Shown here: positions 1 to 58,801 of the stretch, piece by piece
Numbering within the stretch: position 1 is the stretch's first letter
How the letters are laid out: the number at the start of each line of letters is the position of its first letter
IMG/VR virus record: IMGVR_UViG_3300030118_007055
Location: 1 to 64,000 of that record
Reading direction: 5' to 3' (one strand)
DNA length: 64,000 nucleotides
From: a virus
Translations under genes and position numbers: made by a program
Notes under the pieces: generated by a model
What the model was told of the DNA's origin: nothing
The model's input: only the letters and a program-made list of their open reading frames with translations
The model's database searches: none

Positions 1-31
1 AGGGGTGAGCAAAAAAAACACAAAAAAGTTC

Positions 32-60
32 TTGCTTTTAATTCTAATCTGTGCTATAAT
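32..60 (+). promoter_or_regulatory. sigma70-type early promoter, probably leaderless
   Basis: TTGCTT-17bp-TATAAT with extended -10 TG and upstream A-tracts; ATG at 67 is 6 nt after the -10. Confidence 0.8.
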
Positions 61-66
61 TACATC

Positions 67-306
67 ATGAGAAATTCCAATATCTATAAATTCACTGTCA
101 CCGAGTATATGCAAAATCCGCCGTCTTGCGGGGGCAACTGGGAGTGCGGGGAAACCACGTACGTGTACATGTCCCGCTCTGCGAAGCGGGCCACCTCCAT
201 GGAGGTCCGTCCATCCATCCGCGAGTATGGTGAGCAGGGTGTGCCTATCATGGGCCGCCAGACGCTCACCAAGGGCAACAAGGTCATCTTCGACAGGTGG
301 GATTGA
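67..306 (+). CDS. hypothetical early protein
   Basis: 79-aa ORF directly behind a consensus promoter; ends just before repeat copy 1; GC-richer than flanks. Confidence 0.7.
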   Translation: MRNSNIYKFTVTEYMQNPPSCGGNWECGETTYVYMSRSAKRATSMEVRPSIREYGEQGVPIMGRQTLTKGNKVIFDRWD

Positions 307-323
307 CCCGCGTAAAAACCTTC

Positions 324-400
324 GTAAGTCGTTCACTATCAACGACTTACGCGGCGCGGGCAGCCCCGTCGGCGTAACTCGTTGATGCTCAACGAGTTAC
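324..400. repeat. 77-bp double-palindrome element, copy 1
   Basis: GTAAGTCGTT-cactatc-AACGACTTAC, 23-bp GC spacer, GTAACTCGTTGA-tgc-TCAACGAGTTAC. Confidence 0.95.
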
Positions 401-469
401 ATAACATTATACGTATATCCCTGTCAAATCTTTTTTTAATATTTAAATTAAATATTTAATACTTTTTAT

Positions 470-498
470 TTGATATTTATCTATTTATCGTTTATAGT
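470..498 (+). promoter_or_regulatory. sigma70-type promoter, probably leaderless
   Basis: TTGATA-17bp-TATAGT; ATG at 505, 6 nt downstream. Confidence 0.7.
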
Positions 499-504
499 TT
501 GATC

Positions 505-711
505 ATGAACAATAGAATTGATGAAATAATGGCGCATTTAAATAGTGCATCTATAGACGGCGGTTTCTGCCTCTTTGTTGAAAATGGTGAAATCGTTGCT
601 AAAGATCTTCTTCATAATCCTGATGAACTCAATGATCAACTTGAGTTTAATGTTAGGTATGTCGGCACTGATATCTCTGACATTGAAGCGAAACCCTTAA
701 CAAAGAAATAA
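505..711 (+). CDS. hypothetical small acidic early protein
   Basis: ORF track 499..711; start moved to ATG 505 from promoter geometry. Confidence 0.7.
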   Translation: MNNRIDEIMAHLNSASIDGGFCLFVENGEIVAKDLLHNPDELNDQLEFNVRYVGTDISDIEAKPLTKK

Positions 712-715
712 AATC

Positions 716-904
716 ATGGACCCATCAGCAACAGCATTAATGCATGACATAGGCGAAATACTCGATGACTTCAGAGCTGACATGATAGAATCATATGACC
801 CCGATCATATGAAGTTCAGCATTCAAGACATCGAAGAGAAAACCGATAATCTAATAAAAGAAATAAAAGGATTGTTTAGTTCTAGCTATTCTTTTAATAA
901 ATAA
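716..904 (+). CDS. hypothetical small acidic protein
   Basis: 62-aa D/E-rich ORF closely following the upstream gene. Confidence 0.7.
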   Translation: MDPSATALMHDIGEILDDFRADMIESYDPDHMKFSIQDIEEKTDNLIKEIKGLFSSSYSFNK

Positions 905-920
905 AAAAGCAAAAAAATAC

Positions 921-949
921 TTGCACCCCTTTTAAATCTGTGGTAGATT
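921..949 (+). promoter_or_regulatory. sigma70-type promoter, probably leaderless
   Basis: TTGCAC-17bp-TAGATT with extended TG; ATG at 956, 6 nt downstream. Confidence 0.7.
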
Positions 950-955
950 AGAGAC

Positions 956-1213
956 ATGAAATTACAATCCTTAAATCCAACTCAACTAGCGTCATACTTA
1001 GCAGGTAAAACTGTCAGGTATACAAACACACAAAACAAATCATCCGTTACTGATAACGGAGTGAGAACTTTTAAAATCGAATCCATTGATAGGGTCGGTA
1101 GACACTGGGAAACAAGTGAGCAATTCATAACTGCAAAGGTCTCAGATGTTGATGATTCTGGAGTAGAAAAATATAGAAATTTATATATTGACAGCATCAA
1201 TGTCATAGTATAA
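956..1213 (+). CDS. hypothetical early protein
   Basis: 85-aa ORF behind promoter. Confidence 0.7.
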   Translation: MKLQSLNPTQLASYLAGKTVRYTNTQNKSSVTDNGVRTFKIESIDRVGRHWETSEQFITAKVSDVDDSGVEKYRNLYIDSINVIV

Positions 1214-1217
1214 AACT

Positions 1218-1272
1218 GGAGTTAAGGACGGATGGCGAGATGTTCATGGGGGTGAGTCTCGTCATCCACTCC
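1218..1272 (+). other. intergenic stem-loop (possible RNA processing site)
   Basis: GGATGGCGAGAT (1230-1241) pairs with GTCTCGTCATCC (1256-1267) using G-U pairs; GGAGT/ACTCC outer stem; no U-tract. Confidence 0.55.
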
Positions 1273-1304
1273 TTAAAAACTAAACTTAACAACAATAATA
1301 TAAT

Positions 1305-1523
1305 ATGGCAAAACCAACTGAATCAGTTCGCATTGAAGTAAAAACTAAAGATCAAGCAATCTTGCTTAACTATGCTCTCGGCGTAGTTCATCAAGCTCTG
1401 GCAGAGAGAATGTCAGACACAGCAGATGATAAACTTGATCTATTCATTGATAATGTAAAGTGGACACGCAAACACGCTAATACATTAAACGAAAAATTTG
1501 CGTTAAACGCAGAACAATCCTAG
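1305..1523 (+). CDS. hypothetical early protein
   Basis: 72-aa ORF. Confidence 0.7.
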   Translation: MAKPTESVRIEVKTKDQAILLNYALGVVHQALAERMSDTADDKLDLFIDNVKWTRKHANTLNEKFALNAEQS

Positions 1524-1532
1524 GAGGGTATA

Positions 1533-1903
1533 GTCACCGAGTTTAGACTCAGCCCCCTACAGCACAAAAGTTGTAGGTAAGTGACGATGAAACAAATCTT
1601 ACGCCAACCCAAAGTCGCTTCGGCGATGAGACTCACCGAGTGGTGGTGAGGGGCTAAGTAAAAACCTTGGTATGGTTATAAAGGGATTTACCGCCAACTC
1701 TACGGAGAACAATCCCAAACCTAAATACTGGAGGCAAGCCCCAACGGAGCGCTCCCGCCAGTAGGGAAGCCGTCGATAGTGACAGAGCGGTCTTTAAATA
1801 GACCTTAATAACTCGAAAACTATCGGCGGTTTCTTAAAATAAAGCCGTCGGCAGGAATAAGAGGGCTGTTATGCTCTTCAGAAACTGTCGGCGGTTTTTT
1901 TTT
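1533..1903 (+). ncRNA. putative structured non-coding RNA, family unknown, ending in a terminator-like stem plus U-tract
   Basis: no ORF >=60 aa; consecutive multibranch stems, cUUCGg and cUACGg tetraloops, two tandem related long stems, T9 at end. Confidence 0.55.
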
Positions 1904-1921
1904 GTGCTGTTAACTGCTTAT

Positions 1922-1998
1922 ATAAGTCGTTCAGTATGAACGACTTACGCGGGCGCGGCCCCCCGCGCGGCGTAACTCGTTGATACTCAACGAGTTAC
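1922..1998. repeat. 77-bp double-palindrome element, copy 2
   Basis: aTAAGTCGTTCA-gta-TGAACGACTTAC, 23-bp GC spacer, GTAACTCGTTGA-tac-TCAACGAGTTAC. Confidence 0.95.
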
Positions 1999-2097
1999 GA
2001 ATGATTCTACTCATACGCCGTGATAACTTTGTCAAGTAATAATATAATAAATATTTGTCAAGCAAATATTTAACCTAAACTTTTTTGTTTTTTTCTC

Positions 2098-2126
2098 TTT
2101 ACTTTTTTGTTTTCTGCGGTTATAGT
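2098..2126 (+). promoter_or_regulatory. sigma70-type promoter
   Basis: TTTACT-17bp-TATAGT; ATG at 2136. Confidence 0.55.
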
Positions 2127-2135
2127 TACCTCATT

Positions 2136-2960
2136 ATGTCACTTATATTCGCAAAAAATAAACTGGAGCCGATCACACGCCCAAGCGCAGGATCGGTTTG
2201 GACTTCACATAACGTTGAGACTCTCTCTGTAGATGATCAAATTCGGGCGGTTAGAACACCCCCCAAAACGGATAGCCATACGCCTATCCCTCACAGCTTG
2301 CTTGTCGATAAAACTCGCAACGCTTTAGATCGTGCAGGTTTCACCATCACTGAAGAAGAACACGCTCTCGCTCGTGGCGGTCAGCGTTACTTTGGTGGAT
2401 TCGCTTTGACTGGTGATGATATCAAAGGTAAGGATCGTAGACTGGTTTTCGGCTTGCGTAATTCTCACGACAAGTCCACAGCATCTTCCGCTTGCATGGG
2501 TAATTCTATGTTGGTTTGCGACAATATGTGCTTTTCGTCTGACGTTAAGCTCGCTCGCCGTCACACTGTTAACATTCTTCGGGATCTTGATGGGATGCTT
2601 GCCAAAGCTATCGGTCGCATCGTTTCGTCATGGCATGACATGGGCGAGAGAATTATGGCTTACAAAGATTCTGAGATCTCTCCTGAGAGGGCTTCTAATC
2701 TTGTTGTGGATCTTGCCGAGATCAAAGCTCTTCCAGAGCGTGACGTTTACAAGACTGTTAAAGAGTTTCGTAATCAGCCCCACGAGCAGTTCAGAGGCAA
2801 CACCCTCTGGAATTTGTACAACTCCGTAACTGAGAATCTCAAGGGCGGTGATTTGTCCAAGCTCCCAGAGCGCACTATGAAAATGCAGAGTCTTTTTGAT
2901 TCTGTTGCAGGTCATACGCCTGAGATCATAGAAGCTGAGGAGGTCGTTTTACCCGCATAA
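2136..2960 (+). CDS. DUF932/DUF945-family protein
   Basis: motifs PIPH...GQRYFG...GLRNSHDKS...VCDNMCF...RRHT...TLWNLYNSVTE; start moved to ATG 2136 (MSLIFAK). Confidence 0.8.
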   Translation: MSLIFAKNKLEPITRPSAGSVWTSHNVETLSVDDQIRAVRTPPKTDSHTPIPHSLLVDKTRNALDRAGFTITEEEHALARGGQRYFGGFALTGDDIKGKDRRLVFGLRNSHDKSTASSACMGNSMLVCDNMCFSSDVKLARRHTVNILRDLDGMLAKAIGRIVSSWHDMGERIMAYKDSEISPERASNLVVDLAEIKALPERDVYKTVKEFRNQPHEQFRGNTLWNLYNSVTENLKGGDLSKLPERTMKMQSLFDSVAGHTPEIIEAEEVVLPA

Positions 2961-2983
2961 CTAGCCCCGCCTTACCAACCACG

Positions 2984-3015
2984 CCCGCATCCCGAAAGGG
3001 GTGCGGGTTTTTTTT
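2984..3015 (+). terminator. rho-independent terminator
   Basis: CCCGCATCCC-GAAA-GGGGTGCGGG followed by T8. Confidence 0.9.
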
Positions 3016-3053
3016 GTGCTTTTAACTTGACAAGGGTTTAAGTAATAACTTAC

Positions 3054-3130
3054 GTAAGTCGTTCAGTATGAACGACTTACGCGGGCGCGGCCCCCCGCAG
3101 GGCGTAACTCGTTGATACTCAACGAGTTAT
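3054..3130. repeat. 77-bp double-palindrome element, copy 3
   Basis: GTAAGTCGTTCA-gta-TGAACGACTTAC, 23-bp GC spacer, GTAACTCGTTGA-tac-TCAACGAGTTAt. Confidence 0.95.
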
Positions 3131-3194
3131 GAAGCAAAACTATATGTCAAGCTATAATTAAAATTAATTTTAATTATATTAAATGATTTTTTAT

Positions 3195-3223
3195 TTGACC
3201 TAGAATATATCATAGTTTATATT
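3195..3223 (+). promoter_or_regulatory. sigma70-type promoter, probably leaderless
   Basis: TTGACC-17bp-TATATT; ATG at 3230, 6 nt downstream. Confidence 0.75.
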
Positions 3224-3229
3224 CAACCT

Positions 3230-3442
3230 ATGATAGAAGACTATCCAATAAATATAGATAAAGATAAAAGAGACTTCCAAGTCTTTATGTTACATCAAAA
3301 TGGCGACCAAACAATTAACGGATGGTTTACTTATGATGGTGCGGTTCAGTATATCAAGAAATATAAAAGTGAAAACTTGGATACTGACTTAGAAGTGACT
3401 AAGTTTGAAATATTGTTAGACAACACAAATGTAGTAATATGA
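3230..3442 (+). CDS. hypothetical protein
   Basis: 70-aa ORF, ATGA overlap with next gene. Confidence 0.7.
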   Translation: MIEDYPINIDKDKRDFQVFMLHQNGDQTINGWFTYDGAVQYIKKYKSENLDTDLEVTKFEILLDNTNVVI

Positions 3443-4143
3443 GATACTTAACACTTAGCAACTCAAAAATTTTAAAGGGATTCCAAAAAGGTTTCATAAC
3501 TTATGGTCTTCACTTCGCACCGTCTACTTTGTCGGGGCGTAATGTTTGCCCGAACGCATCCCCTGGATGTGCAGAGGCTTGTTTAAATACAGCAGGTCGG
3601 GGCATGATGAACATGGTGCAAGAGGCTAGGATAAACAAAACAAATAAATTCTTTAATAATAAGTTTGAGTTTGTGCTTCAGTTGGTAAAGGATATCCAAG
3701 CAGGTATAAGGTTTGCGACACGTAAAGAAATGAATGTTTGCTTTCGTTTAAACTTAACAAGTGATATCCGTTGGGAAAAATATGGCATCATGCAAGAGTT
3801 TCCAAAACAACAGTTCTACGACTACACAAAGAGTAAACAGAGAATGAGAGCTTTCCTCGGTCGTGGTCTAGGATATAACTCTGAAATGCCTCACAATTAT
3901 CATCTTACTTTTAGCAGAGACGAAACAACAGACATTGAGTTTATAAAAGAAGTAATTAAAAAAGGTGGTAATGTTGCAGTTGTGTTTGATGAGATTCCAA
4001 ATACTTGGGAGGGTATGGATGTTATCAGTGGCGACGATCATGACTTGCGCTTTACTGATCCTCATGGTAAAATAGTTGGACTACAAGCAAAAGGCAAAGC
4101 AAAGCAAGATAACTCTGGCTTTGTTGTAAAAGTAAAAAATTAA
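3439..4143 (+). CDS. phage Gp88-like protein (Cys-motif, probable metal/Fe-S binding)
   Basis: NVCPNASPGCAEACLNTAGRG, FRLNLTSDI, QFYDYTK, NYHLTFS, GDDHDLRF, VGLQAKGKAK. Confidence 0.75.
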   Translation: MRYLTLSNSKILKGFQKGFITYGLHFAPSTLSGRNVCPNASPGCAEACLNTAGRGMMNMVQEARINKTNKFFNNKFEFVLQLVKDIQAGIRFATRKEMNVCFRLNLTSDIRWEKYGIMQEFPKQQFYDYTKSKQRMRAFLGRGLGYNSEMPHNYHLTFSRDETTDIEFIKEVIKKGGNVAVVFDEIPNTWEGMDVISGDDHDLRFTDPHGKIVGLQAKGKAKQDNSGFVVKVKN

Positions 4144-4145
4144 AT

Positions 4146-4319
4146 ATGAAAGATGATATAATATATAAATTGAAAATAATAGGAGGCCCAGAACATAACA
4201 ATGTAAAAGGTTTTTTTACAGCTGACCAGTTGAGAAAAAAAATCTATCTACTAAGAAAACAATTTGGCAATGACTGGTCTTATGATATAGTACCATGTAA
4301 ACAAACACATTTAAAATGA
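4146..4319 (+). CDS. hypothetical protein, 57 aa (below ORF-track cutoff)
   Basis: read by hand: MKDDIIYKLKIIGGPEH...; ATGA overlap with 4316. Confidence 0.6.
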   Translation: MKDDIIYKLKIIGGPEHNNVKGFFTADQLRKKIYLLRKQFGNDWSYDIVPCKQTHLK

Positions 4320-4588
4320 AAGAAGTTAACTACACAAATCAAATCCGTTTTTTACTAACTAAGACTAATGTTCTTATAGACTTGCGATACGATAATTCCA
4401 AGGGGATTACTCACGCAGTCAAGACCCATCAGTTAAAGATGTATAAACCTATAACTAATATAGATGGCTCAGAGGTTCTTGAGGAAATGCCAAGTTACTA
4501 CTCAGAGAGTGACGAGATGAATCAGAAAGCAATTGAGTTGATTTATATGGATAGGCGTGGTAAGTTATCCGAAGGGATGACTCTATAA
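4316..4588 (+). CDS. hypothetical protein
   Basis: 90-aa ORF in operon. Confidence 0.7.
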   Translation: MKEVNYTNQIRFLLTKTNVLIDLRYDNSKGITHAVKTHQLKMYKPITNIDGSEVLEEMPSYYSESDEMNQKAIELIYMDRRGKLSEGMTL

Positions 4589-4655
4589 AAAAAATGCCAC
4601 ACGAAATAAGTTTAATCTTTGTTTTAGCAATCGCACTTTTAATTTTAGCACTAAG

Positions 4656-4835
4656 ATGACAAGCATACCACACGAACCAGATATAAAAGACCAAGAAAAA
4701 AAAGAGGTTTATACTAATCTCGCTAAGGTCGTAGGCGATGCTTGCGAAGCATGGCTTCGCAAGAAAGGCATCGGCACATATGGATTCAAAGAACAAATGA
4801 ATAAAGAATATAAACAGGCAAAAGCAAAAAAATAA
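4656..4835 (+). CDS. hypothetical protein, 59 aa
   Basis: read by hand: MTSIPHEPDIKDQEKKEVY...; preceded by a 21-aa hydrophobic ORF (4594-4659) with ATGA overlap. Confidence 0.55.
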   Translation: MTSIPHEPDIKDQEKKEVYTNLAKVVGDACEAWLRKKGIGTYGFKEQMNKEYKQAKAKK

Positions 4836-4962
4836 AAGTTTTGTTATACGCAACAAATACGCACCAGTTAGGAGTAGAGCGCAGAGAGATCCTGCGACGG
4901 GTTGTTTTCGGGGAGTCATTACCCCATTCTTTCTAACCTTTTGTGATCACCTAGCTGGTGCT

Positions 4963-5039
4963 GTAACTCGTTCAGCATGAACGAGTTACGCGGGGCGGCG
5001 ACCCCGTACTGCGTAACTCCTTGATAATCAACTACTTAC
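4963..5039. repeat. 77-bp double-palindrome element, copy 4 (diverged)
   Basis: GTAACTCGTTCA-gca-TGAACGAGTTAC, 23-bp GC spacer, GTAACTCCTTGATAATCAACTACTTAC. Confidence 0.9.
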
Positions 5040-5062
5040 GATATATAATATATATATAAAGT

Positions 5063-5091
5063 AAAAGGCCCACATTCGCGGGCCTTTATTT
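5063..5091. terminator. probable bidirectional terminator
   Basis: AAAGGCCC-acattcgc-GGGCCTTT between convergent units. Confidence 0.65.
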
Positions 5092-5202
5092 AATACTGGT
5101 TATTTGATCTGGGCTTATTAGTTATTAAGTTATTTGATATTAGATATTAGATCTGGGTATTATTTGTATGTGTTTATTTAGCCCCACTTATTTGATCTGG
5201 GA

Positions 5203-5361
5203 TCATTTGAAACTAAATATAGCTATTAGTAGTCCTATTATTATGGTTACCAGAATCGATATTGGAATATCCCACGGAGTGGCATAAAGTTTTTTATATT
5301 GTTTCGCCTCTTGTTTATTACGCTTTCTCTGGTTCACCCTTGGATTCATTTCTTCTTCCAT
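5203..5361 (-). CDS. small membrane protein
   Basis: MEEEMNPR...ISILVTIIIGLLIAIFSFK, C-terminal TM segment. Confidence 0.55.
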   Translation of the reverse strand: MEEEMNPRVNQRKRNKQEAKQYKKLYATPWDIPISILVTIIIGLLIAIFSFK

Positions 5362-5526
5362 GTTTATTATTACGCTTATTTGTAATCGACTTGAAGAATA
5401 TTGTTGTTTCAATTATGTCACATAACTGTACAATACATAAATTACAAAAATAAAAAATAATAGATATAAAACCGACTCTATCCGTGTCATTTGTTTTGTT
5501 TTGTTGGGGGTTATATATATACTACA

Positions 5527-5652
5527 CTAACCATCGCTCCAGTAGTCATCTATATCATCGTCCTCATGTGATGTTTTCTCCCCCCCTGTAATAGAGAGTA
5601 TAAGTAGAGAGAAGAACATAATAATAAAGCCCCAAGGGTAAAAATTGTCCAT
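5527..5652 (-). CDS. 41-aa membrane peptide with acidic tail
   Basis: read by hand: MDNFYPWGFIIMFFSLLILSITGGEKTSHEDDDIDDYWSDG. Confidence 0.5.
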   Translation of the reverse strand: MDNFYPWGFIIMFFSLLILSITGGEKTSHEDDDIDDYWSDG

Positions 5653-5878
5653 AGTTATTTAAAATGATTAAAAATTATATTTAATTAATTAAAAAGGGTA
5701 GACAGTATATCCAAGCTCTCCATATCATATCTTTCCAAACAAACCATTTTATATTCTTATATTGTAGTATTATATATATATCTATTGTATAAGGGTCTGA
5801 TGTATTGTATATGTATATGGGGGTATATGGTAATGTCTATGGTTATATAATTACAAACGAAGTAAAAATAATTTATAA

Positions 5879-5992
5879 TTACTTTGTATGTTGAATGGTG
5901 GCATACCAGATATTGTAGTAGAACATAGATAAAAACACAATAAGTAGTATATCGCTTCCTAATATTATAGAACTAACTAGAAGAAATATCAT
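5879..5992 (-). CDS. 37-aa hydrophobic peptide
   Basis: read by hand: MIFLLVSSIILGSDILLIVFLSMFYYNIWYATIQHTK; ATGA overlap with upstream gene. Confidence 0.45.
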   Translation of the reverse strand: MIFLLVSSIILGSDILLIVFLSMFYYNIWYATIQHTK

Positions 5993-6189
5993 TGAAAGGT
6001 TGTTACTCCATCTACATATAGATCTGCTTTATCTATATCCTGACCGTGCAAAGTACTCCAATAATGTGATGGCTTTTCTTGTGCTACTTCAATAGCTAAT
6101 CTCTGAGCTTCTTCTTCGTTGTTAGCTTTGACTTCTATAGGAAGAGTTACTTCAGTTACTCTATTAACATCGATGATATAACTATTCAT
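5989..6189 (-). CDS. small acidic phage protein
   Basis: IEVKANNEEEAQRLA motif common in small phage proteins. Confidence 0.65.
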   Translation of the reverse strand: MNSYIIDVNRVTEVTLPIEVKANNEEEAQRLAIEVAQEKPSHYWSTLHGQDIDKADLYVDGVTTFQ

Positions 6190-6514
6190 TTGTAATTACA
6201 ATATTAACTTGCCATGGGTGAGTTTTCCAATCTTGACCTCTAGCCTTCAATGTAACTGTATCTCCGACTTCTGCAAACTTTTTTAAACCAGTGATAGATA
6301 TTCTTTTATCTCCTCTGCCTTTAGCCTTATAGAAAGACACTTTACATTTTGTATTATCTTTATATCTACCAACTAATTCAAATCTATCTCCTGCATCTGC
6401 ATCTGAATATTTAAAATCAAAACTCTCTGCAAAATCACAGACTGTTTTATTGGCATCAATTATACTCTTGTTGAGCATAGTGTTTGTTAATTTTATAATA
6501 GCTTTTTTACTCAT
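6182..6514 (-). CDS. stand-alone B3/EcoRII-N-like DNA-binding domain (putative)
   Basis: LTNTMLNKSIIDA...SFYKAKGRGDKRISITGLKKFAEVGD resembles the N-terminal domain of MvaI/BcnI-family endonuclease proteins. Confidence 0.45.
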   Translation of the reverse strand: MSKKAIIKLTNTMLNKSIIDANKTVCDFAESFDFKYSDADAGDRFELVGRYKDNTKCKVSFYKAKGRGDKRISITGLKKFAEVGDTVTLKARGQDWKTHPWQVNIVITNE

Positions 6515-6520
6515 ACTGCA

Positions 6521-6623
6521 ATAATAATCTATATTAAAGGTAAGTCAAGAATAAATTTGCCCCGAATTTAAATTAATTTTATTTAAAAAAAAATGTTGAC
6601 CTAAATTGGATATCATCTATAGT
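6521..6623. promoter_or_regulatory. divergent sigma70-type promoter pair, both probably leaderless
   Basis: minus: TTGACT(6548-6543)-16bp-TATTAT-6nt-ATG 6514; plus: TTGACC(6596)-16bp-TATAGT-6nt-ATG 6630. Confidence 0.7.
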
Positions 6624-6629
6624 TGTCCC

Positions 6630-6878
6630 ATGAGTAATAAGAAAAGTAATCGTGGCAGACCGAGAGGAGCCACATCATTTGTAAGGGTTTCATTGAGAGA
6701 CTTGACACAACAGATAGGAGAGAATGCCTCAGTGGTAGTCTCTAAAAAATGGCTAGAAAGTATTACTGGAGGAATCGATGAGCTTCCACCTGCTAATATA
6801 GAAACTTCACAGATCAAAGAAGTTGAGGAGCCAACACCAGAAATTGAAAGAATCCAGTTCACAATCCACGATGATTAA
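6630..6878 (+). CDS. small protein with AT-hook-like RGRPRG motif
   Basis: MSNKKSNRGRPRGATSFV; start moved to ATG 6630. Confidence 0.65.
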   Translation: MSNKKSNRGRPRGATSFVRVSLRDLTQQIGENASVVVSKKWLESITGGIDELPPANIETSQIKEVEEPTPEIERIQFTIHDD

Positions 6879-7773
6879 TGATTTGATAGGTCAGGAGCAA
6901 CTTAAAAAAAGGTTGCAGTTCTACACCGATTCTAAAAAAGCCACTGGTGTGATACCATTCTTAATGTTCAATGGAGCAAAGGGATTAGGTAAAACAGAAT
7001 TTGCAAAGCAGTTTGCAAAAACTTTAGGTAAGAAAATGATAGAAATAAATTGTTCTACTATCAGAAATGGTGAGCAATTTTTCGAGCAGATATTTATTCC
7101 TGCTATCATGGACAAAGATATAACAATTCTATTTGATGAGGCTCATGCTTTACCGAAGGATTTAGTTATGGCTTTTCTGACTATCTTTAATGTCGAAGGT
7201 GCTAAAACAAAAAGATTTGATTTTGGCGATAACAGTTTTGTTTTTGAGTTCGAGAGACAGACATTTATGTTTGCCACTACAGAATTAGACAAATTGTTTC
7301 CTCCGTTTAGAGATCGTCTCACAGTCCTTGATTTTGTGCCATACTCTCCTAGTGAGTTATCTAAGATTATGTCTAAGAAGATTAGTTGGGTTAACTTTAA
7401 AGATAATGTCATCGAAGAGGTGGCAACTACATTAAGAGGCAACGCAAGATCAGCAATCAAAAGAGCTTTAGAGATAAGAGCTTATTGTGAGGTAAACAAT
7501 CAAAGTGATTTTGGTCTTCAGGATTGGAACAGGCTTTGTGATTTAATTGATATTCGTCCGTATGGATTGAGTAATACAGAGATCCAGGTGATGCAATTAT
7601 TGAGAGATCGAGGTGCTTGTACTTTACAAATGATATCTGCTGTAACAGGAATGTCTCGCACTGCGATACAACGTGATGCTGAAGTTTATCTTTTAAAAGA
7701 GGGCTTCATGAAAATAGATGGCAAGCGTTGGATCACAGATAAAGGAGTAAAAGCATTAGATAAAATCAATTAA
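6871..7773 (+). CDS. ruvB: RuvB-like Holliday junction AAA+ ATPase
   Basis: LIGQE, GAKGLGKT Walker A, LFDEAH Walker B, ATTE...PFRDR, RGNAR, C-terminal winged helix; start at ATG 6871. Confidence 0.85.
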   Translation: MINDLIGQEQLKKRLQFYTDSKKATGVIPFLMFNGAKGLGKTEFAKQFAKTLGKKMIEINCSTIRNGEQFFEQIFIPAIMDKDITILFDEAHALPKDLVMAFLTIFNVEGAKTKRFDFGDNSFVFEFERQTFMFATTELDKLFPPFRDRLTVLDFVPYSPSELSKIMSKKISWVNFKDNVIEEVATTLRGNARSAIKRALEIRAYCEVNNQSDFGLQDWNRLCDLIDIRPYGLSNTEIQVMQLLRDRGACTLQMISAVTGMSRTAIQRDAEVYLLKEGFMKIDGKRWITDKGVKALDKIN

Positions 7774-8075
7774 TGGCTAGAGTAAAAAAATATGCCCCGA
7801 CTTCAATCGAGGTCGGTGGAGTAACTTTCAAAATCATTTATAAAGAATTAGAGGATTTCGGACAGATGGATATAGATAAAAAGACTATCTTTATTCGTAA
7901 GGGAATGTCTAATGAAAATACTTTTGATACTCTGATGCACGAATGCGTCCATGCTTGTCTTGCAGTTGGAGGAGTCAGTTATATTATAGATGAAGATAAA
8001 ATAGAAGAAGGAGTCACTAGATGCTTAGATAATCTAATGTTTCCAATTTATAAAAAAGAAATTAAAAAATTATAA
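7773..8075 (+). CDS. small HEXXH metallopeptidase-like protein
   Basis: DTLMHECVHA with downstream EE. Confidence 0.65.
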   Translation: MARVKKYAPTSIEVGGVTFKIIYKELEDFGQMDIDKKTIFIRKGMSNENTFDTLMHECVHACLAVGGVSYIIDEDKIEEGVTRCLDNLMFPIYKKEIKKL

Positions 8076-8077
8076 TT

Positions 8078-8626
8078 ATGCCAAACCACGTAACAAATAA
8101 ACTCACAGTTAGAAAAGGAACACAAAAAATTCTTCCTGCTCTTTACAGTGCAACTATCGAATACAACAGCATAGATGAAAAACTCTATGATATCTTACGG
8201 AACTTTTCTTTTAAGAAGATTATAAAAGAACCGCAAGTAACATTTGATTTGGGTAAATCTGTAAATTATACCGAATGGAGATGGGATAATTGGGGAACCA
8301 GAACAGATGCTTATGTTGTTGATGATCCTGATGAGTGGCAGAATAAAGATGAGACTATTAACCTAATAAATAGTTTTGGTCAGTTCGAGACTGCATGGTC
8401 ACCGCCATTAAAGGTAATTCGTAAGCTACAAAAGATGTTTCCAGATTATTCTTTTGCATTAGACTACATAGACGAACAATTTATGTTCTGCGGTACGATG
8501 GATGTAAAAGGTGAGGACAATCACACAGAAGAAGAAAAAGATTTAAGGTATTATGGAGCTTATCTCTTGCAATATTCACACAAAGATTTAGATGAATTCT
8601 TTGAAAGTTGTGAAGAAAATGTTTGA
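8078..8626 (+). CDS. YubB/DUF1281-like ferredoxin-fold protein
   Basis: MPNHVTN, WRWDNWGT, FETAWSPP, YIDE-FCG. Confidence 0.75.
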   Translation: MPNHVTNKLTVRKGTQKILPALYSATIEYNSIDEKLYDILRNFSFKKIIKEPQVTFDLGKSVNYTEWRWDNWGTRTDAYVVDDPDEWQNKDETINLINSFGQFETAWSPPLKVIRKLQKMFPDYSFALDYIDEQFMFCGTMDVKGEDNHTEEEKDLRYYGAYLLQYSHKDLDEFFESCEENV

Positions 8627-8658
8627 CATTGAATTAAAATTAATTTAAATTATTTAAA

Positions 8659-8838
8659 ATGAATTATTATTACACAGATGAAGCAGATTCAGTGATAGAT
8701 ACGCTGAAAGAACACAAATATTTAATTATGGAAGCATTCAATCCTATCGGAGATGTATTTGACGAGATGGAAGCACAGTTTGATTTGATGATTAATGAAG
8801 CAACAAAAGTATTAAACAATAGCAAGAGAGTAAAATGA
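8659..8838 (+). CDS. hypothetical acidic protein, 59 aa
   Basis: read by hand: MNYYYTDEADSVIDTLKE...; behind TTGACA(8623)-17bp-TAAATT; ATGA overlap with 8835. Confidence 0.6.
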   Translation: MNYYYTDEADSVIDTLKEHKYLIMEAFNPIGDVFDEMEAQFDLMINEATKVLNNSKRVK

Positions 8839-9302
8839 GAACAGATCAAGTAGCCAAAGATGGAGAGAGATATGAATATGAGTTATCTTTAACTCATGAT
8901 ATAGACCAAGGTTTCATAGTTGATTGTAGGGAGGATATTGTAAAAGATGATGATGTAGTATCATCTGAGTATGCAGAAGGTTTTATTTTTGATGATTATT
9001 ATGAAGCAGAAAAGAAACTTAAAGAGATCCAAGATCGACTAGAAAAACATAATCAAAAAATATTTGTTACTAACGAAGTAAAAACATTACATAATGTTAC
9101 TGGTAGAGAGATTAAGCCAAAACAAAAGCCAACTCTCTGGACAGTAGATCTTAATACAACATTTAAAAACATTCTGTTTGACTGCACTGAGGATGAACTA
9201 GAACAGAACGTTCAAGAGTTTGTTATTAGTGAATTAGAAAATTTAGACTGGACATATGAAAAAGCTGATGTTAATGTCGGCAAAACAATGATAAGATCAT
9301 GA
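8835..9302 (+). CDS. hypothetical acidic protein
   Basis: 155-aa ORF in operon. Confidence 0.7.
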   Translation: MRTDQVAKDGERYEYELSLTHDIDQGFIVDCREDIVKDDDVVSSEYAEGFIFDDYYEAEKKLKEIQDRLEKHNQKIFVTNEVKTLHNVTGREIKPKQKPTLWTVDLNTTFKNILFDCTEDELEQNVQEFVISELENLDWTYEKADVNVGKTMIRS

Positions 9303-9457
9303 GTGAAGAAAATAAAGAAACAAAGTATTTTAGTGCGTCTTGTAATTTAAATTTCACAGCAGGAAGTTATGAGGAGGCTTGTGACCAACTGCTAGATTAT
9401 TTAAAAGACTCAGTTACCGATGGAGATGTTACATCTTGGTTTATAAACGAAGAATAA
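9299..9457 (+). CDS. hypothetical protein, 52 aa
   Basis: read by hand: MSEENKETKYFSASCNLNFTAGSYEEAC...; ATGA overlap; resembles ORF 10284. Confidence 0.55.
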   Translation: MSEENKETKYFSASCNLNFTAGSYEEACDQLLDYLKDSVTDGDVTSWFINEE

Positions 9458-9459
9458 AA

Positions 9460-9621
9460 ATGATATTATTAAATCCAAACTATTGGGATTGTGAATGCAA
9501 AAGCAATTACATCCATAAAAAAACAGAAACACATCATTGTGTTAAGTGCGACACATATGAAGAAGATCAACCAGATTCAAGACAGGAGGAGGTAAATGAG
9601 TACATTAATAAAAGATATTAA
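9460..9621 (+). CDS. small Cys-rich (Zn-finger-like) protein
   Basis: WDCEC...CVKC; start at ATG 9460. Confidence 0.6.
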   Translation: MILLNPNYWDCECKSNYIHKKTETHHCVKCDTYEEDQPDSRQEEVNEYINKRY

Positions 9622-9805
9622 TTGGTTAGTTGATTATCTGTCTAATGTAGGAGCAGACCATAAAAGCTCTGGGCTTGATTCCACAGCAGAGGATTACCAA
9701 CTTTGTATTGACGTTATAAATCAATTAACTGATGTGATAGAAGAAGTAGATTTTGTGGATGAGGTAGACATAAAAGCAATTAAAAAATTTAAAAAAGGTT
9801 ATTAA
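9596..9805 (+). CDS. hypothetical protein
   Basis: 69-aa ORF in operon. Confidence 0.65.
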   Translation: MSTLIKDINWLVDYLSNVGADHKSSGLDSTAEDYQLCIDVINQLTDVIEEVDFVDEVDIKAIKKFKKGY

Positions 9806-10080
9806 TGGAGTGCAAAAAAAGCTCTTGCAAATATCCAGTAACGTGCGATCATAACGCAGATTGCATGGAGCAATTAGTAATTGAAGCAAATCGTAGAAGA
9901 AAAATGAACTATAAAGAAGCAATAGAAGTTATTATGTTTTTAGCTAATAGAGAGTTAGAAACTAATCAAAGTAATTATGATGTGCCAGTATTATTTAAAG
10001 ATGATAAGAGCATAAACATCGAAGCAATAGAACAAGCTTTTGAAGTTGTAGAAGAAGAATTAGAAACTTTACCTTATTAG
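9805..10080 (+). CDS. hypothetical protein
   Basis: 91-aa ORF with four N-terminal Cys. Confidence 0.6.
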   Translation: MECKKSSCKYPVTCDHNADCMEQLVIEANRRRKMNYKEAIEVIMFLANRELETNQSNYDVPVLFKDDKSINIEAIEQAFEVVEEELETLPY

Positions 10081-10081
10081 A

Positions 10082-10297
10082 ATGCAAGATAGGATACAAT
10101 TTAATTTAATCAATGGTTGGAGATTTGCAGTAGGAGTAGATGAAAAAGAAAACGTCCTTCATGTAGAGATAAAAAATGATAGTGAAAAACCATTAATTGA
10201 ATGGGCTTACTCTGAGGAGGAAGCGAAAGAAAAAGAACCTGTTGTTTGGAGACAAGCTTTTACCACAGAATTATTAGAAGAAGATGAAGAAGTTTAA
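10082..10297 (+). CDS. hypothetical acidic protein
   Basis: 71-aa E-rich ORF. Confidence 0.65.
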   Translation: MQDRIQFNLINGWRFAVGVDEKENVLHVEIKNDSEKPLIEWAYSEEEAKEKEPVVWRQAFTTELLEEDEEV

Positions 10298-10466
10298 AGT
10301 TACATTCCGAGATGAGATAGAAGCAGAATCAGAGGAGCAAGCATATAAAAACATTCGTGATTTTTGTGCAATGGTTTACAATAGTTCAGATGTTACAGCT
10401 TTTAAATTTGAGGAAGTTAAAGAAGATGGCAATGGGCATGAGATTAGAATGCCTGTAAGTCCATAA
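10284..10466 (+). CDS. hypothetical protein
   Basis: IEAESEEQA motif. Confidence 0.6.
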   Translation: MKKFKVTFRDEIEAESEEQAYKNIRDFCAMVYNSSDVTAFKFEEVKEDGNGHEIRMPVSP

Positions 10467-10470
10467 AATT

Positions 10471-10626
10471 ATGAAAAGTATTTGGCGGTTATGGGCAAAA
10501 GCATTGGGAGAAAAGCAAGGAAAAGATAATGAGGCTGATTGTGTCGCCCTTATTAGAACTTTGATAATTCTTCAAGCTATTATTTGCAATTTCTTTATTG
10601 TGGCTAATATTATAAAAAATTGGTAA
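10471..10626 (+). CDS. small phage membrane protein, 51 aa
   Basis: read by hand: MKSIWRLWAKALGEKQGKDNEADCVALIRT...; WAKALGEK family recalled from aquatic phages; TAATG overlap with next gene. Confidence 0.65.
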   Translation: MKSIWRLWAKALGEKQGKDNEADCVALIRTLIILQAIICNFFIVANIIKNW

Positions 10627-11093
10627 TGAATATATTTGTAGTAGACAAAGACCCCAAGATATCAGCACAGCAATTGTGCGACAAACACGTTATTAAAATG
10701 ATTTTAGAATCTGCTCAGATGTTATGCTCTGCATTCCCTAATGGAACCGCACCATACAAAAGAGCTTTTTACAATCACCCATGTACTATTTGGGCTAGAG
10801 AATCGCAAGAAAACTATGAGTGGTTACTAGATCATGCGTATGCCATGTGTCAAGAGTATACTAGACGTTATGGCAAAGTCCATAAATCTATTTACGCCAT
10901 TGAATGGTGCGGTAAAAACTACCATAAACTAAACTTATCTAAGATTGGATTAACTAAGTTTGCTCAAGCCATGCCAGAACAATATAAAAACAAATGTAGT
11001 ATTACAGCTTACAGATCATATTACAATGGAGAGAAAGCAGGATTCGCTACATGGAAAACAAGAAAAAGTCCTGAGTGGTTTGTAAAAGCATGA
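10626..11093 (+). CDS. pyrimidine-dimer DNA glycosylase (DenV/endonuclease V-like) family protein
   Basis: MNIFVVD...CDKHVIKMILESAQML...NHPCTIW...EYTRRYGKVHKS...QAMPE. Confidence 0.8.
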   Translation: MNIFVVDKDPKISAQQLCDKHVIKMILESAQMLCSAFPNGTAPYKRAFYNHPCTIWARESQENYEWLLDHAYAMCQEYTRRYGKVHKSIYAIEWCGKNYHKLNLSKIGLTKFAQAMPEQYKNKCSITAYRSYYNGEKAGFATWKTRKSPEWFVKA

Positions 11094-11359
11094 ATTTTTT
11101 TAAGCTTCTCCTTGCATACCTCAACATAATAGTTCCTACTCCTTCCGAGGAGTGGGAACTTATTTCAAATCAAGAAGAAACTAATTATTTGATTGTCCAT
11201 CAAAGTGGCAGATGGTATGAAAAAATAGTAGACAAAAACAAAAGACCCATTTACATTTCAAATAGCGAGCATCATAGGTACATGATCGAATGGAAAAATA
11301 ATAAACCTTCGGTTAAATACAAGGCTCCAAATGGTTGGAAATGGATTAAATTGAATTAA
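11090..11359 (+). CDS. hypothetical protein
   Basis: ORF track 11075..11359; ATGA overlap favours start at 11090. Confidence 0.6.
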   Translation: MNFFKLLLAYLNIIVPTPSEEWELISNQEETNYLIVHQSGRWYEKIVDKNKRPIYISNSEHHRYMIEWKNNKPSVKYKAPNGWKWIKLN

Positions 11360-11389
11360 AATTAATTTAAATTAAATTTAAATATTATT

Positions 11390-11782
11390 TTAGTCTCCGT
11401 TTGGGGAGTCCACTGGTGGAGGTGGGGTATTAGCCCAAGTTCTCAAAGCGGGAATAGCTACCAATATCGCATCCATTGCGGCTTTTACCTCTGGCACTTC
11501 ATCAACAGCTTGCCAAAAAGTTTTTCTTCCGTTAACTTTATTTGGAACGTGTATATGAGTTGCTCCCTCATTGTCAGGAGAAACAAGAACTTTTTTATTT
11601 TCTGCATCATAAGGTAACATTTGTATATTTATATTACCTTCATTTGGTGCTGCTTCTGCTGTATTTGGAGAAAATATATTTATACTTTGAATCCATACAG
11701 AATCAAATGTTTCTTCTGCTGATGCTGGTACAACAAACGGCTCCTCTCTTGGGATTGGTGATCCTGAATTTTCATCTGGCAT
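11390..11782 (-). CDS. hypothetical protein
   Basis: 130-aa ORF downstream of a minus-strand GTGTAA motif. Confidence 0.7.
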   Translation of the reverse strand: MPDENSGSPIPREEPFVVPASAEETFDSVWIQSINIFSPNTAEAAPNEGNINIQMLPYDAENKKVLVSPDNEGATHIHVPNKVNGRKTFWQAVDEVPEVKAAMDAILVAIPALRTWANTPPPPVDSPNGD

Positions 11783-57291: not shown

Positions 57292-57695
57292 AGGTATATA
57301 TCTTGATTTTTAAATAATGATGCCTGTATCTCATCTTGAGGATAAACCTCTGCTAACTTTATGCCATTTGCTTGACAGAAATCAAGTTTCTTTTCATCCC
57401 TTTTTAGTTGGTCAGAATACTTAAAGTGATTTTTATGAAAAAATTTAACATACTTTGTATGTTGTGCGCCTTGAACTTCAACAGCAATTTTTTTATTGGC
57501 GTTATAAAAATCTAAAGTTAATCTAGTCCCTACAACTCTGAACTCCTCAAAAACAATATCGTTCTGCCAATATTCAAAAAGAAATTTCTTAACCTTTGTT
57601 TGAAATTTGCTACGACTAGGTTTATGCCAATCTATTAAATATTTTTTTGCGTTTTTAAGATTTCTTTGTTTACCATATTGATCAACAAACTTCAT
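57288..57695 (-). CDS. Vsr/DUF559-like endonuclease
   Basis: LDFY..KIAVEVQGAQH...QLKRDEKK. Confidence 0.75.
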   Translation of the reverse strand: MKFVDQYGKQRNLKNAKKYLIDWHKPSRSKFQTKVKKFLFEYWQNDIVFEEFRVVGTRLTLDFYNANKKIAVEVQGAQHTKYVKFFHKNHFKYSDQLKRDEKKLDFCQANGIKLAEVYPQDEIQASLFKNQDIYL

Positions 57696-58801
57696 GACGT
57701 TATTTGCTGTTTAAAGTAATCAATTAAAAATTTGCAAAGTTTTTCATCTTCATCAAGAACTTTAAATAGATTGTTATCTCCTTGAATTTGCTCAGGAAAC
57801 TCTAATTTATTATCATTTAATAAATCTTTGAAATCATCTGTAGGTTTAATCCAAGATCCTTTTTTTTCTACAAAGTCCCAAGCATAAAGTAAATCAACTA
57901 CCTCTTTTTCAATCCATATAGAGTTACCACCAGATCTATTATACCTAACAGGATAACTTAAAGTGACATTTGATTTTTCATTAGGAGATTTAGCTATTAA
58001 AACCTTTGCAAAATGACCGATGATTGGATTTTTTCTCTCATCAATAGTTTTTAAACTTGGGTTATGAAGAATCAAATCGGCTTTATACCTAGGTTGAAAC
58101 TGTATGCAAGTATTAGCATAATGCTGTAAAGCATATCCACCTGTAGCTACAGATTGTCTAGGCGGCTCTTTAGAATATTGATCTCTCATTTCTGATCTTA
58201 CCTGACTAATAAAAATAGCCATGTGACCTCTCTTGCCTAAAGCTATACTAGTTTGAGCACACCATCTAGCTGCAATGGACGCTCCAGAGGCTATTTTAGC
58301 AAACTCTTCAAAACCTTTAGATGCGTCATTTTTTGCCGTTAATCCATCAACAGAATCTAATATAAAACAATATTTTTGTGGGTTTTTTACATTATCTATA
58401 AGCTGCTTGATACAAGTCATAGCTGTTTCATAGATGTTGGTTTCTAAAACAAAGCAAGTGCCATCTACCCACTCATCTGCTGACCAAACAAACTTTACAC
58501 CTGATCTTTCCCTTATTTCTGGAGCGAGTCTACCTTCAGCTTTAATATACAAACCTCTTGGCTTCTCTACAGTCTTTAAAAAATTTTTCATTACTTCCAA
58601 AGCTTCAGAGGTTTTACCTCCCTCAGTCAGCCCAGTAAAACGATGTAATCCAGGTCCAAAGCCTCCATTCATGCAAAGGTCAAACTGCAAAGATCCACTA
58701 GAGACTTTGTAATCGTACTCTTTTTCAAAGTTATAATGATCGCTTTTGTTTGATTTCAAAAAATTACCAAGAATATCGTTTGGGTCTGGTCCTTCACTCA
58801 T
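57692..58801 (-). CDS. recA: RecA/UvsX-like recombinase
   Basis: SSGSLQFD, GLTEGGKT, ILDSVDGL, FISQVR, TGGYALQH. Confidence 0.85.
   Translation of the reverse strand: MSEGPDPNDILGNFLKSNKSDHYNFEKEYDYKVSSGSLQFDLCMNGGFGPGLHRFTGLTEGGKTSEALEVMKNFLKTVEKPRGLYIKAEGRLAPEIRERSGVKFVWSADEWVDGTCFVLETNIYETAMTCIKQLIDNVKNPQKYCFILDSVDGLTAKNDASKGFEEFAKIASGASIAARWCAQTSIALGKRGHMAIFISQVRSEMRDQYSKEPPRQSVATGGYALQHYANTCIQFQPRYKADLILHNPSLKTIDERKNPIIGHFAKVLIAKSPNEKSNVTLSYPVRYNRSGGNSIWIEKEVVDLLYAWDFVEKKGSWIKPTDDFKDLLNDNKLEFPEQIQGDNNLFKVLDEDEKLCKFLIDYFKQQITS

Follow-up and report, generated by a model that had tools for sequence, protein, structure and literature searches.

What is the function of a double palindrome that recurs between the small early-gene cassettes at one end of an uncultured phage genome, and what kind of molecule reads it? 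The question is raised by the first 5 kb of the IMG/VR virus record IMGVR_UViG_3300030118_007055, of which we analyzed positions 1–64,000 (hereafter the window, 64,000 nucleotides of a linear contig of 84,209 bp that is ~76% complete; window base 1 is contig base 1). Four elements of 77 bp, located at 324–400, 1922–1998, 3054–3130, and 4963–5039, separate these cassettes and correspond to the four copies of an 85-nt repeat family, D1 (319–403, 1917–2001, 3049–3133, and 4958–5042), whose pairwise identities range from 75% to 94%. An earlier sequence-only reading, made by a model from the letters and their open reading frames, had described each element as two 27-bp palindromes around a GC-rich spacer, always 50 bp apart, and had seen no copy beyond 5.1 kb. 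The arrangement is confirmed, since the palindrome starts are 50 bp apart in every copy (324/374, 1922/1972, 3054/3104, and 4963/5013) and a search of the window with the pattern GTAASTCGTT-N7-AACGASTTAC, allowing up to three mismatches, returned these eight palindromes and none in 100 shuffles. The restriction to the first 5.1 kb also holds for the whole 84,209-bp contig, in which no further copy was found.

The elements stand out by their composition (52–57% GC, with GC-rich spacers, against 33% in the rest of the window) and by their predicted folding into three adjacent hairpins on each strand (z about −6 to −7 for copies 1–3 and −3 for copy 4). Element 1 (324–400) is made of a left dyad at 324–350 with a TTCA-cta-TCAA core, a GC spacer at 351–373, and a right dyad at 374–400. 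The left dyad of element 2 (1922–1998) is a TTCA..TGAA variant (1922–1948), separated by the GC spacer from a right dyad of the TTGA..TCAA type (1972–1998); element 3 (3054–3130) is 94% identical to element 2, and the spacers of both are 90% identical. Element 4 (4963–5039) combines an intact left dyad, carrying GTAAC/GTTAC, with a degenerate right dyad (two mismatches), which is overlapped by an 11/12 promoter match at 5021–5049 that uses the TTGATA of the dyad as its −35 box. This promoter match runs directly into a GC hairpin at 5064–5087 (window 5021–5090), and the two could specify a very short transcript or mark a boundary with leftward genes beyond. No target-site duplication is visible at any of the four copies.

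A scan beyond this genome, which the earlier reading had recommended, showed that the same palindrome is found in many other phages and, as described below, in bacteria. An exact search of IMG/VR with TAASTCGTT-N7-AACGASTTA identified at least 120 stretches from marine and other aquatic samples, many of them with several copies and mostly as doublets. In a relaxed scan of these loci, at least 120 in number, we counted 825 palindromes, and the spacing between neighbors peaks at 50 bp (183 cases), 58 bp (61), 42 bp (32), and 52 bp (30). Over the whole family the dyad measures 29 bp (13 + 3 + 13), with the consensus cGTAAsTCgTTGA-nnn-TCAAcGAsTTAcG; the 27-bp palindrome initially proposed is thus accurate for the pattern in the window and too short for the family. 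The 21-bp spacer of the 50-bp class is richer in GC than the flanks (87% vs 41%) and folds hardly better than shuffled sequences (−8.0 vs −7.1 kcal/mol). In the 58-bp and 52-bp classes, the spacer is a true hairpin, with an A-run and a T-run on its sides in the latter class. Upstream and downstream dyads are of similar quality (3.23 vs 3.15 mismatches), which gives no indication of polarity. Spacers are near-identical among the copies of one genome and different between genomes, and 193 pairs of elements share their spacer with unrelated flanks; spacers are homogenized within genomes. The median distance from a stop codon to the element is 69 bp, and that from the element to a start codon is 100 bp.

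The genomes compared here are the studied contig (G000), a relative (G001, which includes the stretch L129), and a complete 148-kb relative (G002), and L069 is the closest relative of the window. Among the matches listed, 53 of 120 short loci carry, beside the array, a conserved block encoding a PhoH protein, a Zn-ribbon protein, a sigma factor, and an unknown protein (F13), and because of this association the family is a hallmark of one phage lineage. Members of the block (L129 18135–19851; L041 3333–8097) are an unknown 280-aa protein, the PhoH-like ATPase, and the Zn-ribbon protein, to which are added the sigma factor (regions 2 and 4), an unknown 350-aa protein, and an ERCC4-type nuclease with a C2H2 finger. 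The PhoH/sigma block is missing from the studied contig, which is itself incomplete. In G001, eight doublets lie inside the contig, at 25.5–32.4 kb, a location that lends no support to the earlier idea of first-injected DNA, and abut the PhoH/Zn-ribbon/sigma block; for this reason we consider that the array of the window is cut by the contig end and continues leftward, as had been supposed from the window itself, and one metagenome contig joins the end of an element to window position 12. Our literature search found no description of such an element, returning only papers on PeSLs, on REP/BIME repeats, and on integration host factor (IHF), and this repeat family of intergenic boundary elements is apparently so far undescribed.

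Perfect palindromes may be maintained either because they fold or because a protein reads them as duplex DNA, and the manner in which the arms vary bears on this choice. In our pairing test, an exact palindrome served as anchor and its partner at ~50 bp was taken regardless of quality, which guards against ascertainment bias (n = 164). On each arm of these partners, the TAA/TTA and T10/A18 positions are conserved at 91–99%, whereas the other positions change without compensation, and Watson–Crick pairing at five of them is retained in only 51–76% of cases. The G/C position is Watson–Crick in only 51% of partners (CG 56, GG 33, CC 29, and GC 27), so that the two arms are essentially independent there, C-A and similar nonwobble mismatches are commoner than G-T wobbles, and ~3.4 of 13 positions are unpaired in the average partner palindrome. 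The statement that symmetry is kept while sequence varies, which had been derived from the four copies, is therefore correct for copy 4, with its paired GTAAC/GTTAC change, and does not extend to the family. Because half-site sequence is conserved and base pairing is not, the arms read as four independently constrained double-stranded half-sites rather than as hairpins, which agrees with one of the two functions first envisaged for the element, a docking site for two protein dimers.

The half-site itself points to a candidate reader. Outward from the dyad center, its profile is W (76%), A (41%, a plurality), T (84%), C (82%), A (100%), and A (86%), continued by the N4 positions (cGAs) and then by T, T, and A, that is, W-A-T-C-A-A-c-G-A-s-T-T-A-c-g in full. 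The nine positions that the IHF consensus WATCAANNNNTTR specifies are all matched by this profile; according to 10.1101/382655, which quotes the consensus, WATCAR lies between two kinks separated by 9 bp, and TTR falls in the flank. Each dyad would offer at most two overlapping and oppositely oriented IHF registers, ~2 bp apart. A kink geometry with kinks at the AA/TT steps, at a distance of 9 bp and symmetric about the dyad, was rejected, as the same source puts WATCAR between the kinks. A search of G000, G001, and the complete G002 for genes of the HU/IHF family (PF00216) gave none.

The bacterial occurrences of the dyad bear on the same question. In one-genome-per-species collections, the exact 25-nt dyad was found 26 times (L133–L158), against roughly 0.1 expected from a uniform-composition estimate, nearly always in intergenic regions of FCB/PVC bacteria. 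The carriers are Bacteroidota, Fibrobacter (seven loci), Akkermansia-like metagenome-assembled genomes (MAGs), Verrucomicrobiales and other Verrucomicrobia, and Lentisphaerae. Seven of these dyads lie within ~15 bp of the 3′ end of a tRNA gene and are followed by a T-run, and in one case then by an integrase gene; other contexts include the vicinity of a plasmid RepA gene, one conserved Fibrobacter locus, and, in three Akkermansia-like MAGs, a position upstream of argS, beside a TGTTCC-N4-GGAACA palindrome. A few matches come from short MAG contigs, where the dyads form doublets with a GC core; these probably represent mis-binned phage DNA. As to the reader, the chromosomal pattern fits a nucleoid protein of the host better than it fits a regulator specific to the phage. 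As to the host, a Shine–Dalgarno-like motif precedes only 7 of the 57 longer genes of the phage, a scarcity that hints at a Bacteroidota-like or similar host, and the distribution of chromosomal dyads, combined with this scarcity, hints at a host of the FCB/PVC type.

The elements are also the places where cassettes are exchanged. Window positions 1–402 are 97% identical to L069, and the window from 313 onward is 76% identical to it. In a three-way alignment, element 1 corresponds, from its left edge through its spacer, to the L069 element at 4947–5022 and, from the loop of its right dyad on, to the L069 element at 3328–3404 with the promoter behind it, the switch point falling inside the shared TCGGCGTAACTCGTTG. 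Element 1 is thus a chimera of two L069 elements; the 1.5-kb cassette between these two, which encodes ORFans of 333 and 134 aa, is absent from the window, and at this junction G001 carries another extra cassette, different from that of L069. In every relative, elements border the DUF932 cassette on both sides, but its upstream neighbors vary. We identified 31 cross-contig pairs with one homologous flank (identity of 80% or more) and one dissimilar flank (45% or less), and in these pairs the homology stops at one of several points, namely the near edge of the element, the junction of dyad and spacer, a position within the far dyad, or the far edge. Such a spread of breakpoints is expected of homology-driven crossovers in either conserved dyad and not of one fixed cut, and it points to ordinary homologous recombination. 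In addition, no tyrosine recombinase gene (PF00589) is present in G000, G001, or the complete G002, in a search with positive controls, nor did we find any serine recombinase or Y1 HUH gene (RAYT, PF01797) in these genomes, which extends to relatives what had been noted for the window. The comparison of cassette content between relatives, which the earlier reading had proposed, thus supports part of its hypothesis of a cassette-shuffling system: cassettes are indeed gained and lost exactly at the elements (L069, G001), with breakpoints within elements in the 31 pairs, whereas a dedicated integron-like system finds no support, the breakpoints being scattered and the recombinase lacking. Logan contigs also join element to element (350>1962 and 3096>5009), although these contigs are short and break at repeats, and the joins may be assembly artifacts; they are suggestive and do not count as proof of excised circles or of variants.

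We consider that the element is best explained as a docking module for a DNA bender of the IHF/HU type, which would mark the boundary of early transcription units and double as a crossover point for homologous recombination, a reading to which we assign a probability of about 0.55. The functional unit would be double-stranded DNA with four half-sites, in which two dyads of 29 bp, spaced by 50 bp, enclose a 21-bp core of ~87% GC. Because the half-site corresponds to the IHF consensus, the reader would most likely be an IHF/HU-type DNA-bending protein of the host, bending the DNA once at each dyad, with a stiff GC core between the two bends. Placed after the terminator of one early cassette and ~60–140 bp ahead of the next promoter, the unit could act as an architectural boundary or as a promoter-upstream module for early transcription units. 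Since the same ~29-bp sequences return at every cassette border and also in related phages, the elements are in addition the crossover points of general homologous recombination, which deletes, inserts, and exchanges cassettes; the phage encodes a UvsX-like recombinase. Which protein binds the element, and its part in regulation or as a boundary, are what we infer here; the repeat, its architecture across the family, the conservation of half-sites instead of pairing, the crossovers within the elements, and the lack of a dedicated recombinase are direct observations.

Several observations weigh against this reading. The case for IHF as the reader is a consensus match only, and in three of the four left dyads of the window (TTCA..TGAA) both arms have G where WATCAA has its conserved C, so that these dyads should be poor canonical IHF sites. 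The N4 positions (cGAs) and the outer cG of the half-site are also fairly conserved, which suggests a reader more specific than Escherichia coli IHF. Pairing is not wholly irrelevant either: at arm position 8/20 the 51% of Watson–Crick pairs compare with ~32% expected from column frequencies, and symmetric double changes are present in the family (TCCTT/AAGGA) and in the window (TTCA/TGAA in three left dyads, GTAAC/GTTAC in copy 4). This excess of symmetric variants means that conversion between the arms, or some mild preference for symmetry, is at work as well. Concerning the relation to promoters, the distances from dyad center to −10 box in the window (101, 106, and 136 bp) share no common helical register, only 70 of 530 family flanks contain a stringent sigma70-type promoter, with small distance peaks at 65–67, 84–86, and 105–107 bp, and elements are also located between convergent (64) and divergent (31) genes. 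The missing Shine–Dalgarno sites suggest a Bacteroidota-like host, yet the early promoters are TTGACA/TATAAT-like. Finally, some rearrangements involve no element, namely a swap of two genes in G001 and indels inside the noncoding stretch 1594–1716.

Among the alternatives, the one that we take most seriously, while still regarding it as doubtful, holds that the dyads are operators of a phage-encoded, sequence-specific regulator (for example, an early shut-off repressor or an activator encoded in the conserved block) and that cassette exchange is a by-product. It would account for the proximity of the arrays to a block with a Zn-ribbon protein, a sigma factor, and two unknown proteins, for the confinement of the elements to the early region, for a conservation that goes beyond the IHF consensus (cGAs, the outer cG, and the symmetry of the 29-bp dyad), and for the TGAA that replaces TCAA in three left dyads of the window. 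It is harder to reconcile with the identical palindrome at conserved intergenic sites in the chromosomes of several phyla, in unrelated gene contexts; moreover, no candidate DNA-binding gene is tied to the element, and the 84-kb contig, incomplete as it is, lacks the PhoH/sigma block. The same variation of the arms that argues for a protein site makes it unlikely that the element acts through nucleic-acid hairpins, that is, as three stem-loops stopping transcription in both directions or stabilizing the 3′ end of RNAs. Arm sequence is conserved and pairing is not, with about 3.4 of 13 pairs lost and nonwobble mismatches outnumbering G-T wobbles, the spacer of the 50-bp class shows no selection for folding, and copies 2 and 3 are preceded by canonical terminators distinct from them, with no T-run after the dyads. 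In a scan that found intrinsic terminators at 2983–3008 and elsewhere, none of the eight dyads qualified on the plus strand, and the minus-strand reading of the dyad at 323–351 alone passed, with a weak tail. The Rfam comparison that had been suggested as a check on novelty was also negative, since a cmscan of positions 1–6000 (E ≤ 1) left the elements unmatched, its sole hit being a chance one to STnc410 outside them (19 bits, against a gathering score of 50 bits). In favor of hairpins are the three-hairpin fold of both strands, far better than that of shuffles (z −5 to −7), the true spacer hairpin of the 52-bp and 58-bp classes, with the A-run and T-run of the former, the T-run that follows the palindrome in Bacteroidota chromosomes, often straight after a tRNA gene, and the 64 family copies between convergent genes.

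The two remaining alternatives invoke mobility of the element or of its cassettes. We hold it for very improbable that the elements belong to a dedicated site-specific cassette system, integron/attC-like or Xer/att-like, with an unrecognized recombinase that would cut at the dyads or in the GC core and with IHF-like accessory arms. In favor of such a system, elements form the exact borders of cassette-sized indels, some metagenome contigs pass directly from one element into another, one of the two paralogous segments of G002 (96.5% identity) has an element where its counterpart has ~36 unrelated bp, and the architecture of attP places IHF-type sites on both sides of a core. Against it, tyrosine recombinases have overlaps of 6–8 bp and serine recombinases of 2 bp, and the 29-bp dyad with its 3-bp center suits neither; no tyrosine or serine recombinase or Y1 HUH gene was found in the three genomes searched (G000, G001, and the complete G002); the end point of homology varies within the element; attC conserves structure and not sequence, the reverse of what is seen here; and the joins in the short Logan contigs may be artifactual. 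Least probable of all, in our view, is a selfish repeat of the REP/BIME or MITE type, spread by transposition and without function for the phage. Palindrome doublets with discrete linker classes do resemble BIMEs (PMC3333891, PMC2817692), spacers are near-identical within a genome and different between genomes, and the element is present in one G002 paralog and absent from the other. Nevertheless, a Y1 (RAYT) transposase is lacking in G000, G001, and G002, the four copies have no target-site duplication, and the strict confinement to early arrays together with half-sites conserved across very divergent phages argue for a function.

Returning to the IHF/HU docking module, a more far-reaching version of it can be proposed tentatively, in which the element would be part of a lineage-wide, recombinase-free "plug-and-socket" arrangement, where two U-turn sites for a nucleoid protein, with a GC clamp between them, would physically insulate each early unit. 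Since hundreds of aquatic phages have the same socket, any cassette with a socket at both ends could pass between co-infecting phages through ordinary recombination; if this were true, the arrangement would represent a phage counterpart of the integron, relying on architecture instead of an integrase. Should the docking reading itself hold, the element would be a second, independently evolved answer to the problem solved by PeSLs, that of keeping small, fast-turnover early genes individually expressed and freely exchangeable, in a family that, with at least 120 IMG/VR stretches, is apparently much more widespread than PeSLs. From a practical point of view, the element provides a sequence marker for the early or accessory islands of many uncultured phages and makes cassette borders precise, and such early islands are the expected place of counter-defense and host-takeover genes. 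The IHF match and the dyads of Bacteroidota, Fibrobacter, and Verrucomicrobia chromosomes, for their part, predict a binding protein and a kind of host.

The transcription signals and composition of the cassettes are as the sequence-only reading had described them, with terminators before copies 2 and 3, sigma70-like promoters downstream of copies 1–3, and visible differences in GC content between cargo genes (55% for the open reading frame at 67–306, 47% for DUF932, and 30–38% for the remaining ones). Cassette A (31–306, plus strand) comprises a promoter, TTGCTT-17-TATAAT (31–60), and a probably leaderless, Cys-rich 79-aa ORFan (67–306), in a segment 97% identical to L069. Because this gene has 55% GC in a phage of 33% GC, is found in 10 related loci, and is 95% identical in L069, it suggests a recently exchanged cassette. 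Cassette B (470–1905, plus strand) has its promoter at 470–498 and four small ORFans (505–711, 716–904, 956–1213, and 1305–1523), and its 3′ part is made of ~380 nt of structured noncoding DNA (1524–1905, 48% GC) with no Rfam match, ending with a T-run hairpin (~1882–1903) just before copy 2. This noncoding stretch shows indels, as L069 lacks ~1596–1716, G001 lacks ~1594–1662, and a contig joint 1594>1667 was seen in two runs. Cassette C (2098–3012, plus strand) is composed of a promoter (2098–2126, with an alternative match after copy 2 at 2020–2048), the DUF932 gene (2136–2960), and an intrinsic terminator (2983–3008) followed by T8, ahead of copy 3. Cassette D (3195–4962, plus strand) starts with a promoter at 3195–3223 and contains open reading frames at 3230–3442, 3439–4143 (GP88 family), 4146–4319, 4316–4588, and 4656–4835. 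Right before element 4, ~100 nt of noncoding sequence (4861–4961) are closed by a 12-bp stem, GCACCAGTTAGG/CCTAGCTGGTGC, with a minimum free energy of −40 kcal/mol (z −3.2); ARAGORN detected no tRNA in positions 1–7000, which include this region. The first genes of cassettes begin 6–9 nt past the −10 hexamer (window positions 55–69, 493–507, 944–958, 2121–2138, and 3218–3232), and because of this short distance the first gene of each cassette is probably leaderless. Pfam, PHROGs, and PADLOC gave names to the DUF932 and GP88 products only, the rest of the cargo being ORFans, and PADLOC had no hit, so that an anti-defense role of the cargo is a guess.

The phage itself is siphovirus-like, aquatic, and equipped with DnaE. 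Its AT-rich genome encodes lambda-type tail proteins, a DnaE-type polymerase, a DnaB helicase, and a UvsX-like recombinase (57692–58801 of the window), and it was found in marine metagenomes from 16 studies. Neither a megablast search with window positions 1–5400 nor a blastn search with one element matched any of 50,697 deposited phage records, and tblastn with the DnaE polymerase found nothing above ~32% identity; with no near relative among these records, no cultured relative or host can be named. Comparison with the relatives revealed further rearrangements. In G001, the genes corresponding to 505–711 and 716–904 are in reverse order (L129 13889–14343 vs window 505–925) with no element between them, a swap that may have been mediated by a 28-nt direct repeat at the two gene ends (686–713/841–868). 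The whole array of G001 is inverted and placed on the other side of a conserved block (window 8093–11359; L129 600–3700 and 9750–16400 vs window 1–11400), which is a large rearrangement of the early region. G002 carries twice a 5.8-kb segment (L130 1578–7282 and L131 8907–14653; 96.5% identity) with DUF932 and ~15 small genes, and these are the two paralogous segments of which one contains an element and the other ~36 unrelated bp in its place.

How does the element compare with known systems? Like integron attC sites, it provides an imperfect palindrome at the 3′ end of each cassette of an array. However, attC sites keep a folded single-strand structure with extrahelical bases and need IntI, whereas the element keeps its sequence: the core half-site is 91–99% conserved for a pairing of 51–76%, and no IntI-type integrase is encoded by G000, G001, or G002. 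With IHF sites it shares the settings of the bacterial palindrome, beside a tRNA gene and an integrase gene, beside a plasmid replication gene, and upstream of promoters. It differs from the classical sites (lambda H′ and H1), which are asymmetric, with the consensus on one side and often an A-tract opposite, in being composed of two inverted, overlapping consensus halves, in the conservation of N4, and in the TGAA of some copies. In the RIP and RIB elements of enterobacteria, an IHF site forms the linker and the REPs are GC-rich hairpins; the layout of the phage element is the inverse, with IHF-like dyads outside and the GC core inside. The likeness to BIME/REP doublets lies in the pairs of palindromes, in linkers of a few discrete lengths (here spacing classes of 42, 50, 52, and 58 bp), and in the intergenic location, usually after gene ends (PMC3333891, PMC2817692), as well as in the association with nucleoid proteins, which concerns IHF and gyrase for BIMEs and is only predicted for the element. 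Unlike REPs, the element has no GTAG/CTAC tetranucleotide, its foot being CGTAA, and no RAYT (PF01797), and it occurs in phage early regions in few copies per genome.

The closest parallel is with the PeSLs (promoter-early stem-loops) of T4-type phages (Arbiol et al. 2010, PMC2839356; Comeau et al. 2014, PMC4122927), which are short conserved intergenic motifs between small nonessential early genes, in hyperplastic regions, each combining a strong sigma70-like promoter with a terminator stem-loop. The present element consists of two 29-bp dyads and a GC core, inserted between a separate terminator and a separate promoter, both of which lie outside the 77-bp unit in copies 1–3, with only copy 4 overlapping a promoter match. 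Because the repeat is itself neither promoter nor terminator, it falls outside the definition of a PeSL, and the phage lineage that carries it is unrelated to the T4-type phages. In both systems, recombination between copies deletes, inserts, and replaces cassettes among close relatives, as seen here in the chimeric element 1, in the 1.5-kb cassette that distinguishes L069 from the window, and in the 31 pairs with one-sided homology. The element is thus PeSL-like in function and new in architecture.

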